A DNA stretch of 64,000 nt, from contig CAMTXH010000005.1 of the NCBI GenBank assembly GCA_947085655.1, forward strand, positions 6,110 to 70,109, read 5' to 3'. Shown here piece after piece: positions 292 to 30,959 of the stretch (the first letter of the stretch is position 1; each line of letters starts with the position of its first letter). A model generated the notes under the pieces. The model ran no database searches and was not told where the DNA came from. It saw nothing but the letters and a program-made list of their open reading frames with translations. This DNA is from an uncultured Omnitrophica bacterium. GTDB lineage: Bacteria; Omnitrophota; Gorgyraeia; JACQQV01. The position numbers were made by a program, and so were the translations under genes.

Positions 292-320
292 CTGCGCCGT
301 ACAAACGGCGCCTTTTTTTG
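292..320 (+). terminator. Rho-independent terminator after the TusA-like gene
   Basis: Perfect hairpin gcgccgt-acaa-acggcgc followed by a run of 7 T. Confidence 0.7.
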
Positions 321-477
321 CCCTATATATACAGATATACTTATATATCAATATATTAATAAAAAGTTGGTTTTACCCTTCCCCTCTTTTCCCCCGGCTT
401 GAAATAACCGCCCGATTTTAGTAAAATAAAACGCTATGTTATAACCCTTTTTTAATAGACATGTTACGGAGGAGCCG

Positions 478-1470
478 ATGCGACAAGAAGAGATTCAAGC
501 GATCAACGAGAAAGTGAGAAAAGAAAGCAGCTTCGTCGGAAAACTGCGCCAGGAAATCGGCAAGGTGATCGTGGGCCAAGAATATATCGTGGAGCGGCTC
601 CTGGTGGGTCTTTTGGCGGACGGCCACATCCTTCTGGAGGGAGTCCCGGGACTTGCCAAGACGTTGAGCGTCTCGACCCTGGCCCAGGCGATCTCTGCCA
701 CGTTTCACCGGATTCAATTCACGCCGGATCTTTTGCCGGCGGATCTGATCGGAACACAGATTTATCATCCGAAAGAGGGAACCTTCACCGTGAAAAAAGG
801 GCCCCTCTTCGCCAATATTATTTTGGCGGATGAAATTAACCGCGCCCCTGCCAAGGTGCAAAGCGCTCTCTTGGAGGCGATGCAGGAGCGGCAGGTGACG
901 ATCGGGGAGGAGAGTTTCAAGTTGGAGGAGCCCTTTCTGGTTTTGGCGACGCAAAACCCCATTGAACAAGAGGGGGTTTATCAACTCCCCGAAGCCCAGG
1001 TGGACCGGTTTATGTTGAAACTCAAGATCACCTACCCGAGCCCTACAGAGGAGCAGGAAATCTTGAAACGGATGGCAAAGGTCGGGAAGAAAATCCAAGT
1101 TTCCCCGGTCGTCTCACCGCGGGAGATCCTCCAGGCGCGGGAGGTCGTGAATGACATTTACTTCGATGAAAAACTCGAAAAATACGTGGTGGATCTTGTG
1201 GTCGCCTCCCGGGATCCGGAGAAATTTAAACTGAACCTGCGCGATTACATCGAATACGGCGCTTCTCCGCGGGCGACCATCTATCTGACTTTGGCCTCCA
1301 AGGCGTACGCTTTTCTGCAGGGGAGGGGTTATGTGACGCCGCAGGATATCAAGCGGATCGGTCATGATGTTCTCCGGCACCGGATCATTGTGACCTATGA
1401 GGCCGAGGCAGATGAGGTGACATCCGAGAAAATCATCGACCAACTCTTCGACGCCGTCGAAGTCCCATAA
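478..1470 (+). CDS. moxR: MoxR-family AAA+ ATPase
   Basis: GQEYIVERLLVGLLADGHILLEGVPGLAKT Walker A context, 330 aa, first gene of a Bat-type operon. Confidence 0.9.
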   Translation: MRQEEIQAINEKVRKESSFVGKLRQEIGKVIVGQEYIVERLLVGLLADGHILLEGVPGLAKTLSVSTLAQAISATFHRIQFTPDLLPADLIGTQIYHPKEGTFTVKKGPLFANIILADEINRAPAKVQSALLEAMQERQVTIGEESFKLEEPFLVLATQNPIEQEGVYQLPEAQVDRFMLKLKITYPSPTEEQEILKRMAKVGKKIQVSPVVSPREILQAREVVNDIYFDEKLEKYVVDLVVASRDPEKFKLNLRDYIEYGASPRATIYLTLASKAYAFLQGRGYVTPQDIKRIGHDVLRHRIIVTYEAEADEVTSEKIIDQLFDAVEVP

Positions 1471-9355: not shown

Positions 9356-9384
9356 AAAACACACAATCGAATAGCACGTTGTTG

Positions 9385-9668
9385 CAGAGGTGGCCTTGAG
9401 GCCTTAATCAGGGAAGCCGGTGGAAATCCGGCACGGTCCCGCCGCTGTAACCCCGCCTTTTCCATCATGGAAAAGGAACTCTTTCAGCAAGAAGATACCA
9501 CTGCCCAGCACTAATTTTTCAAGAAAATTAGTGCTGGGTGGGAAGGTGCGCTGGAAGAGCGGGGGAGTCAGAAGACCTGCCTTTGCACAAAAGACCACTG
9601 CCCCGTGGTGAGGGTAAGGGTGGATAAACCGGGAATTCTCCCTGCTTCAGATGAGGCAGGGTTTTTTA
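9385..9668 (+). promoter_or_regulatory. Cobalamin (B12) riboswitch with terminator-type expression platform
   Basis: GGGAAGCCGGTGGAAATCCGGCACGGTCCCGCCGCTGTAA core; CCACTGCCC; B12 box GGAGTCAGAAGACCTGCC at 9564-9581; terminal hairpin ccctgc/gcaggg plus T-run at 9640-9668. Confidence 0.9.
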
Positions 9669-30121: not shown

Positions 30122-30173
30122 GGTGTTATGATATCACAGAATGCGTTTCGGGTGAAGGAGGAAATCTTCCCGT

Positions 30174-30202
30174 TTGACAATGAACGGGATGCTAGGTATA
30201 CT
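30174..30202 (+). promoter_or_regulatory. Consensus sigma70 promoter (TTGACA-17 nt-TATACT) driving the intron-containing tRNA-fMet
   Basis: ttgaca at 30174-30179, 17-nt spacer, tatact at 30197-30202. Confidence 0.65.
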
Positions 30203-30300
30203 AAAAAGACATCGCGGGGTGGAGCCCCTCGCGCCTGCAAGAAGGTCGAGGCGCTCGGGATTCCACCTGGAGTTTGGAGAGATTCAAAGAAGCGATTCGA

Positions 30301-30661
30301 CGCGGGGTGGAGCAGTCTGGTAGCTCGTTGGGCTCAAAGAACACAAGTGGGCTGTTCAGCCGGTAACGGTTGAGCGATTCCTGTCAAATTCGGTGGAGCC
30401 TGTAACAGCCAGTGCTAAGTTGTCAAGGTAATACCGAGCCAAGTCCTGAGCGATGGTGAGAGAGGCCATAAGGCCGAATCGAACCAGAGCCGAAGGAAAG
30501 GTGTAGAGACTAGAGGATAGGCACCCACTACATGGGGTGGGTGAAAGTATAGTCCAGACTACAAACTCTGTTCTCTAAAGGAATAGCGAACGGAGACAGC
30601 GAAAGCTGGAGTAGTACGCATAACCCAAAGGTCCCTGGTTCAAATCCAGGCCCCGCTACCA
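30301..30661 (+). tRNA. Initiator tRNA-fMet (anticodon CAT) split by a group I intron in the anticodon loop; exons 30301-30334 and 30619-30661
   Basis: 5' exon CGCGGGGTGGAGCAGTCTGGTAGCTCGTTGGGCT and 3' exon CATAACCCAAAGGTCCCTGGTTCAAATCCAGGCCCCGCTACCA join to a canonical tRNA-fMet with GGG/CCC in the anticodon stem, unpaired C1/T72 and encoded CCA. Confidence 0.8.
30335..30618 (+). ncRNA. Group I intron, IC3-like (similar to Azoarcus tRNA-Ile and cyanobacterial tRNA introns), about 284 nt, no ORF
   Basis: Exon ends in U and intron ends in G; conserved core blocks GTCAAATTCGG (P3), CCGAGCCAAG (P4/P6), GGTGTAGAGACTAGAGGA (P7 5' and P3 3'), hairpin cacccac/gtgggtg (P8), TAGTC (P7 3'). Confidence 0.7.
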
Positions 30662-30668
30662 GTTTCAA

Positions 30669-30699
30669 AAGGCCACGGTGACCCCGTGGCCTTCTTTTT
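30669..30699 (+). terminator. Rho-independent terminator after tRNA-fMet
   Basis: aggccacgg-tgac-cccgtggcct followed by tcttttt. Confidence 0.75.
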
Positions 30700-30707
30700 C
30701 CTGAGCC

Positions 30708-30959
30708 ATGATCCAAAAATTCATCTGTCCAAAATGCGGGAATGTCTCGGAGGTGCCGGTCGAGGGATTTGACGTCGGTACCACAGAACTCGATTGCTCT
30801 TGCGGCGCCTCGATGGTCCCTTCCGGCGGCCTTGAACATGAAGCCGAACTCCCCCCGGGGCGCGACCGGCTTCTTCAAAAAAAGCGCCGCCTGGAGGGCA
30901 TCTGGAAATGGATTGCGCTTCTTCTTTTTTTCGCCAGCGTCATTTATCTTCTCTATTAA
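30708..30959 (+). CDS. Small zinc-ribbon protein with C-terminal TM anchor
   Basis: CPKCG...CSCG Cys pairs, basic KKRRLEG, then hydrophobic WIALLLFFASVIYLLY; 83 aa. Confidence 0.45.
   Translation: MIQKFICPKCGNVSEVPVEGFDVGTTELDCSCGASMVPSGGLEHEAELPPGRDRLLQKKRRLEGIWKWIALLLFFASVIYLLY

Follow-up and report, generated by a model that had tools for sequence, protein, structure and literature searches.

Is an initiator tRNA gene that is interrupted in its anticodon loop still a working gene, and does its product then have to be freed by a ribozyme before translation can begin? The question is raised by a 64,000-nucleotide (nt) stretch of contig CAMTXH010000005.1 (GenBank assembly GCA_947085655.1) from an uncultured bacterium of the Omnitrophota, hereafter the window, in which the two parts of a gene for the initiator tRNA (tRNA-fMet) lie 284 nt apart. 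We consider it highly probable that this gene is split between tRNA positions 33 and 34 by a group I intron of subgroup IC3 that lacks an open reading frame (ORF), with the splicing pathway and the history of endonuclease-gene loss that are proposed below.

The split gene and its intron

Spliced in silico, the two exons form a 77-nt tRNA with a CAU anticodon. A C1xU72-type mismatch, an A11:U24 pair, three G:C pairs and the CAU anticodon characterise bacterial initiator tRNAs, and each is present here: G2 to G7 pair with C66 to C71 in the acceptor stem, with C1 unpaired opposite U72, A11:U24 lies in the D stem, and G29 to G31 pair with C39 to C41 in the anticodon stem. Position 72 is U, C or A among relatives, and the pairing of C1 is never restored. 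ARAGORN in its default mode called no tRNA at the split gene; given the sequence without the 284-nt insert, it returned a 77-nt tRNA(CAU).

The insert (30335 to 30618) lies between U33 and C34. The dinucleotide CA stands at both junctions (GGGCU/CAAAG ... UACG/CAUAA), which leaves the splice position ambiguous by sequence alone. In its intron mode, ARAGORN reported a split tRNA with a 284-nt intron, placed the boundary at 37/38 and called the product Leu(CAA); both the choice and the miscall follow from the repeated CA. In group I introns, the 5' exon ends in U and the intron itself in G (omega-G), and U33/C34 is the sole boundary that provides both and restores the anticodon loop CUCAUAA. The 37/38 boundary with its tRNA-Leu(CAA) was rejected, since it breaks this rule (its 5' exon would end in A and its intron in U) and yields an anticodon at odds with the initiator body.

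Searches of the whole window with Rfam at gathering thresholds reported just a cobalamin riboswitch and two ordinary tRNAs, and not the group I intron family RF00028. When RF00028 was run by E-value over 30150 to 30760 (611 nt), it matched 30325 to 30576 (model positions 1 to 253, 39.4 bits, E = 1.5e-8). The RF00028 search, by which a preliminary description of this DNA had proposed to check for an intron, thus came out negative at the gathering threshold, which strictly is the no-hit outcome named there as refuting the idea, and positive by E-value. Six homologues clear the RF00028 gathering score, with 53.9 to 65.6 bits, and the window copy is the lowest scorer. By these scores, the intron family is a bona fide Rfam group I family. 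Standard annotation misses the gene, as default ARAGORN and the Rfam gathering thresholds both fail; genomes of this kind would be scored as being without an initiator tRNA, and completeness estimates for metagenome-assembled genomes (MAGs) would thereby be distorted.

The insert carries the conserved blocks GTCAAATTCGG (30383 to 30393), CCGAGCCAAG (30434 to 30443) and GGTGTAGAGACTAGAGGA (30500 to 30517), followed by the P8 hairpin and TAGTC (30550 to 30554). We drew by hand a structure of paired regions P1 to P9 in which P7 crosses P3 to form the P3/P7 pseudoknot; in the window, 65/65 pairs of this structure are canonical. The structure was then assessed over an alignment of nine sequences, from two of which (L018 and L036) an endonuclease ORF had first been cut out. 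Over these sequences 89.9% of cells are paired, and 26 of the 65 pairs have changed on both sides, compared to 11.8 +/- 2.2 in 500 shuffles, none of which reached 26. Slid controls, in which the partners were moved by 1 to 3 columns, gave 2 to 9 pairs with a change on both sides. P1 and P7 are nearly invariant and hence provide no covariation signal for or against the structure. An unconstrained minimum free energy (MFE) fold yielded P2, P3, P4, P5, P5a, P6, P8, P9, P9a and P9b, with z = -5.6 relative to shuffles.

The elements expected at the splice sites are also in place. U33 (30334) is wobble-paired with G30350, which marks the 5' splice site, and in 9/9 homologues neither this U-G pair nor the two flanking it on either side vary. 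ACG ends the intron, and its omega-G (30618) is invariant in the alignment. The CAU of the 3' exon can form P10 with the guide bases that P1 uses for the first two bases of the intron, and this shared use of guide bases by P10 and P1 explains why CA is repeated at both junctions. P7 is the helix expected to bind guanosine. As for peripheral elements, the extension of about 48 nt in P6 (UGAGCGAUGGUGAGAG...GAAUCGAACC.GAG.CGA) is common to the window and L031, is absent from other relatives and is shorter in L036.

To describe the core independently of the window, we used a covariance model (R1) of P3 to P7 built from 11 relatives, with the window excluded; four of these relatives are published as IC3 introns at fMet 33/34. 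Searched against the 64-kb window, R1 gave a single match, at 30378 to 30559, with 123.3 bits and E = 5e-28. The assignment to IC3 rests on this homology to members classified as IC3.

On this structure, splicing would proceed as follows. The gene's own sigma-70-type promoter would start transcription and its own terminator would end it, and the intron would fold into P1 to P9, with the guide UGGGCU pairing to exon GGCU and the first two intron bases so that U33 sits in a G-U wobble. Free guanosine bound in P7 would attack after U33. Omega-G would then occupy the same site while the 3'-exon CAU pairs with the guide in P10, and ligation would restore CUCAUAA. RNase P and 3' trimming would complete the tRNA.

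The gene is flanked by its own expression signals. The TTGACA-17-TATACT promoter is also found upstream of the orthologous tRNA-fMet in L018, L036, L038, L039 and L031, and hairpin terminators follow the tRNA-fMet in relatives too; judged by these signals, tRNA-fMet is a conserved stand-alone transcription unit. The preliminary description had claimed an IC3-type group I intron in the anticodon loop of an initiator tRNA gene, and most of its particulars hold. The spliced sequence and ARAGORN bear out two exons that form a bacterial initiator tRNA with an encoded CCA; the 284-nt insert at U33/C34, with its exon-final U and intron-final G, and each group I block lie where they had been placed; the insert holds no ORF of more than 37 amino acids (aa); promoter and terminator flank the gene as described; and the intron type is supported by structure, covariation, homology to published IC3 fMet introns and synteny. 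The features are collected in Table 1.

Table 1. Features of the split tRNA-fMet gene and its intron, in window coordinates (a slash within P1 marks the 5' splice site)
Feature	Position	Strand	Details
Sigma-70-type promoter TTGACA-17-TATACT	30174-30202	+	11/12 positions match
Long 5' leader	30203-30300	+	exact copy of tRNA nt 1-13 at hairpin base
tRNA-fMet exon 1	30301-30334	+	nt 1-33, last base U33
P1	30331-30353	+	5' strand GGCU/CA 30331-30336; 11-nt loop L1 30337-30347; internal guide UGGGCU 30348-30353
P2	30354-30375	+	9-bp hairpin, GUAA (GNRA) tetraloop; 7/9 pairs changed on both sides
P3 5' strand CCUGUC	30380-30385	+	partner 30516-30521; 100% of cells paired, 2 compensatory pairs
P4 UUCGGU/ACCGAG	30389-30394 / 30433-30438	+	100% paired; last pair U-A -> G-C compensation
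P5	30398-30401 / 30426-30429	+	enclosed by P4
P5a	30405-30409 / 30419-30423	+	43% paired, poor MAFFT alignment; present in MFE fold
P6	30444-30446 / 30495-30497 (30444-30497)	+	extension of ~48 nt
P7 5' strand GACUA	30508-30512	+	partner 30550-30554; 4/5 pairs invariant, 97.8% of cells paired
P3 3' strand GAUAGG	30516-30521	+	partner of 30380-30385
P8 hairpin	30522-30543	+	7 bp; 6/7 pairs compensatory
J8/7 AAAGUA and P7 3' strand UAGUC	30544-30554	+	from alignment
P9 three-way junction	30558-30618	+	P9 30558-30562 / 30611-30615; 2 compensatory pairs
P9a, variable	30566-30595	+	4 compensatory pairs
P9b	30597-30608	+	GAAA tetraloop; 1 compensatory pair
tRNA-fMet exon 2	30619-30661	+	C34 to A76, CCA encoded
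Intrinsic terminator	30669-30699	+	10-bp stem at 30669-30693, 7 G-C pairs, then T-run

The leader of the window copy measures about 90 nt, compared to 15 to 34 nt in most relatives. It contains an exact copy of tRNA nt 1 to 13 at 30213 to 30225, which starts 10 nt past the -10 box and forms with the tRNA start a 13-nt direct repeat with a spacing of 88 nt. A long hairpin (GGUGGAGCCCCUCGCGCC / GGCGCUCGGGAUUCCACC) has this copy as its base, and L022/L023 keep the element, with a single compensatory change from C-G to U-A. It had no Rfam match. Candidates for its origin are a partial duplication and an insertion with a 13-bp target repeat.

Related loci and the endonuclease gene

The named top homologues of the window enolase all belong to Candidatus Omnitrophica/Omnitrophota (the best named one is 77% identical), in agreement with the earlier impression that the host is not cyanobacterial. 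A metagenome scan with the pattern GGGCT..GTCAAATTCGG..CCGAGCCAAG found 21 loci, and several of these are tRNA-fMet genes split at the same site, with introns of 253 nt (L022/L023), 220 nt (L025/L030), 311 nt (L031/L034), 223 nt (L016) and 695 nt (L018). Exact-protein look-ups on enolase homologues added introns of 667 nt (L036) and 235 nt (L038; GCA_016206785.1) and an intron-free gene (L039). The gene order is conserved: PGM, enolase, DivIC, in some cases Band7 and NfeD, then tRNA-fMet, a BBP2 porin, thioredoxin reductase and adenylosuccinate lyase.

This locus occurs in three states. The intron is absent from L039, where the site reads GCTCGTTGGGCTCATAACCCAAAGG; an intron with a PF11645 ORF is present in L018/L040-42 and in L036; and an ORF-less intron is present in the window, in L038 and also in L022, where it lies beside enolase-DivIC. 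L031 has an ORF-less intron too, and its neighbourhood lies outside the synteny comparison. Exon 1 is identical in six intron-bearing alleles (window, L018, L036, L038, L022 and L031). Differences in exon 2 between the window and its relatives are limited to position 72 and to paired changes in the T stem, which exists among the intron-bearing alleles in four versions (CCUGG/CCAGG, AGAGG/CCUCU, GCAAG/CUUGC and CUUGG/CCAAG), each fully complementary. This pattern suggests that the exons are under tRNA-type selection, in which case split genes with such exons must still give tRNA.

The ORFs of the L018 and L036 introns match PF11645, a PD-(D/E)XK endonuclease family, at about 1e-41. The L018 ORF also matches PDB entry 2OST (deposited as 'Putative endonuclease') with E = 1.7e-45; we take this entry to be I-Ssp6803I. 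The two Omnitrophota ORFs share 79% identity, a divergence about that of the host enolases, and they begin 2 to 4 nt past the 5' splice site, within the P1 loop. No PF11645 PD-(D/E)XK ORF was found within 30335 to 30618, where the longest ORF has at most 37 aa, and the ORFs that overlap the insert, 30128 to 30373 (+) and 30528 to 30878 (-), had no Pfam match.

The 11-nt L1 of the window reads CAAAGAACAC..AAG and aligns with the ORF start CAATGGACAC and the AAG that precedes the guide. In L018, L036 and L031, its counterparts are the start (ATGGACAC) and the final bases of the inserted endonuclease-gene segment. The same region reads CAATGGACAC...TTGTCCAAG in L036 and CAATGGACACAAAGGGGTGTCCGAA in the ORF-less L031. 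The window P1 loop looks like the 11-nt scar of a deleted endonuclease gene, and the window intron probably derives from an I-Ssp6803I-type mobile intron. In the ancestry that we propose, such an intron, with its PD-(D/E)XK gene in the P1 loop, would have lost the gene by deletion and kept the scar. The endonuclease-bearing Omnitrophota introns are a modest extension of host range, seen in the related loci and not in the window. Together, the empty, endonuclease-bearing and ORF-less loci form a compact natural series in which intron gain, loss of the endonuclease gene and possible transfer across phyla can be studied.

Several of the related loci show further features. Upstream of the split gene, L022 carries at 730 to 1333 a broken second copy of exon 1, consisting of nt 1 to 19, an 81-nt hairpin-rich insert, nt 20 to 28, a 95-nt insert and nt 27 to 33. 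After this broken copy, a GIY-YIG ORF (PF01541, E = 1.6e-15) reads into the real exon 1; it is a candidate homing endonuclease gene that stands free next to an ORF-less intron. Directly 3' of the tRNA in L018 (3387 to 3631), a 115-nt unit is repeated 2.1 times with 99% identity, and the final 16 nt of the tRNA (CCTCTCCCCGCCACCA) open each copy. The intron family is also found in non-initiator tRNA(CAU) genes on AT-rich metagenome contigs (L021 at 310 to 678 (-), likewise L020, L028, L035 and L027). In those contigs an antisense ORF lies just 5' of the internal guide, the L021 copy being HNH-like (CxxC...HH...CxxCH). Among viral contigs of IMG/VR (L043 to L077), 35 contain the word pair GTCAAATTCGG...CCGAGCCAAG, at 36 sites in all; 33 of these sites lie within ARAGORN split tRNA genes (Met, Leu, Arg, Gln, Asp and Thr), none with initiator-type exons. 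Phages carry many introns of the window's family. Elsewhere in the window, a cobalamin riboswitch (RF00174, 87.6 bits) lies at 9371 to 9598 (+).

Second copies, decay and other readings

Some observations weigh against a working intron on which the cell depends. The RF00028 score of 39.4 misses the gathering value of 50, which every relative tested clears; a substitution in J8/7 affects the catalytic junction, the one real caveat for activity; our view of the genome is limited to 64 kb; and other tRNA-fMet sequences with identical exon stretches, this organism's or others', must be present in the samples considered next.

The last two points bear on dependence. An uninterrupted tRNA-fMet elsewhere in the genome could supply most of the initiator tRNA, so that the intron splices and splicing is nevertheless dispensable, an alternative that we regard as unlikely, though it is the strongest of those considered. 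Short-read Logan contigs of this organism, which match the window at 100% identity, terminate at 30325 or 30336 and resume at 30632 (L001, L002 and L003 to L006). Such breaks are typical of a de Bruijn graph when exon sequence also occurs in another context, and the interrupted (CAA) and uninterrupted (CAT) forms diverge directly after 30336. Other members of the community explain the breaks equally well, however, as near-identical tRNA-fMet genes are known in other phyla; we thus rejected the breaks as proof of a second gene copy. Moreover, no second tRNA-fMet copy was found within the 64-kb window, and in four relatives the tRNA-fMet, with or without intron, lies between enolase-DivIC and the BBP2 porin behind the same promoter, so that it looks like the orthologous initiator gene of the clade.

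A scan of the genome collection with a 32-nt exon-2 word returned 8 loci: at seven of them lie uninterrupted tRNA-fMet genes of other organisms, and at the eighth a 3' half-gene. This half-gene, in an uncultured Acidobacteriaceae MAG (L014; CAWDLQ010000010.1, about 4416 (-)), comprises only C34 to A76 of a tRNA-fMet, with unrelated AT-rich sequence before it, and possibly marks where an element has integrated into a tRNA gene.

If the window gene is the only copy, each round of translation initiation would depend on a ribozyme, and the cell would in this sense require splicing. We put forward tentatively, as slightly short of an even call, the fuller proposal that it is the sole initiator tRNA gene and that all translation initiation is thereby ribozyme-dependent, in a clade that shows an empty site, an endonuclease-bearing intron and an intron with a deleted endonuclease gene, with the endonuclease family in tRNA-fMet introns reaching a second phylum.

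It is considerably less probable, and in our view quite improbable, that the gene is a pseudogene whose group I intron is decaying and can no longer splice. This reading was prompted by the RF00028 score, the lowest of the family, and the private substitution in J8/7 and the loss of the endonuclease gene also speak for it. Among the columns without variation in the other eight sequences, 3 carry a private change in the window; several relatives have more such changes, up to 13. A G-to-A change at 30517 in P3 keeps a U-A pair, and a C-to-U change at 30567, at the base of P9a, keeps the pairing. The third, G-to-A at 30546, alters the third base of J8/7, which is G in all eight relatives. Against decay stand this low count with every modelled pair canonical, and the intact U(-1), omega-G, P7, GNRA loops, promoter and terminator. 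Exon 1 is an exact match to that of five intron-bearing relatives, and the exon 2 changes are of the paired T-stem and position-72 kind. Endonuclease genes are, in addition, absent from most bacterial tRNA introns (PMC13011429). On the count of private substitutions and the covariation of the exons, the pseudogene reading was largely rejected, and the window intron would, as far as its sequence tells, be catalytically active.

Readings other than a group I intron, in which the insert would be a junction of a mobile element or genomic island, a protein-spliced 37/38 intron or the sign of two tRNA half-genes, could draw on the 37/38 Leu(CAA) call of ARAGORN and on half-tRNA remnants known elsewhere, such as L014, but are effectively refuted by the covariation behind the group I helices and the full-length RF00028 and R1 matches, with the 37/38 boundary failing as set out above and no transposase, integrase or terminal repeats found, and we give them next to no weight.

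Comparison with known tRNA introns

The split initiator gene, read as carrying an ORF-less IC3 intron at 33/34, joins an established group. Williams (2020, bioRxiv 10.1101/2020.01.27.920355) lists fMet.2Ug among four classical bacterial tRNA intron types, all IC3, and gives 0/12 RF00028 seed sequences as bacterial. The tRNA-fMet 33/34 site is described as well characterised in a 2026 mSystems survey (PMC13011429), whose Table S5 includes IC3 fMet 33/34 introns in Omnitrophota (GCF_004102945.1, 252 nt) and in two Nitrospirota, one Desulfobacterota and one Bacteroidota genome. The view in the preliminary description that intron-bearing tRNA-fMet genes are mainly cyanobacterial is outdated by that table, with its four other phyla. 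The window intron adds to an already catalogued class, known in several phyla including Omnitrophota, and it leaves knowledge of how such introns work unchanged. Its interest lies mainly in the possible ribozyme dependence of initiation and in the three-state locus series of its relatives.

The Synechocystis sp. PCC 6803 intron is 655 nt long and encodes a 150-aa PD-(D/E)XK endonuclease (GenBank U10482, as cited in PMC1995217); I-Ssp6803I is the homing endonuclease of this tRNA-fMet intron (PMC1995217, PMC3384342). Close I-Ssp6803I homologues are generally cyanobacterial (PMC3384342), and among the complete genomes surveyed, PF11645 endonuclease genes in tRNA-fMet introns were found just in Cyanobacteriota (PMC13011429). 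Host gene and insertion class (33/34, fMet.2Ug) are the same as in the window, and the size is near that of the introns in the window's closest relatives, L018 and L036, whose ORFs share its endonuclease family. In contrast, the window intron has 284 nt, no endonuclease gene and an Omnitrophota host.

The structurally solved pre-tRNA-Ile intron of Azoarcus sp. BH72, likewise IC3, resembles the window intron in subgroup and overall architecture. Presumably it also shares GUCAAAUUCGG, CCGAGCCAAG, GGUGUAGAGACUAGA, AUAGUCC and the GNRA loops on P2 and P9, which we treat as a lead. The Azoarcus intron differs in sitting after U36 (36/37) of a tRNA-Ile(CAU), so that its guide pairs with CAU whereas the window guide pairs with GGCU, and in being shorter, without the P6 and P9a extensions of the window.

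A third comparison is with the GCF_004102945.1 intron, which was included in R1 and has the same phylum, gene and site and no ORF. It aligns with the window intron from end to end with all core blocks kept, at about 63% identity over aligned columns. The sequences of P2, P6, P8 and P9a differ between the two, as does the anticodon stem, which is CAAGG/CCUUG in GCF_004102945.1 and UUGGG/CCCAA in the window.

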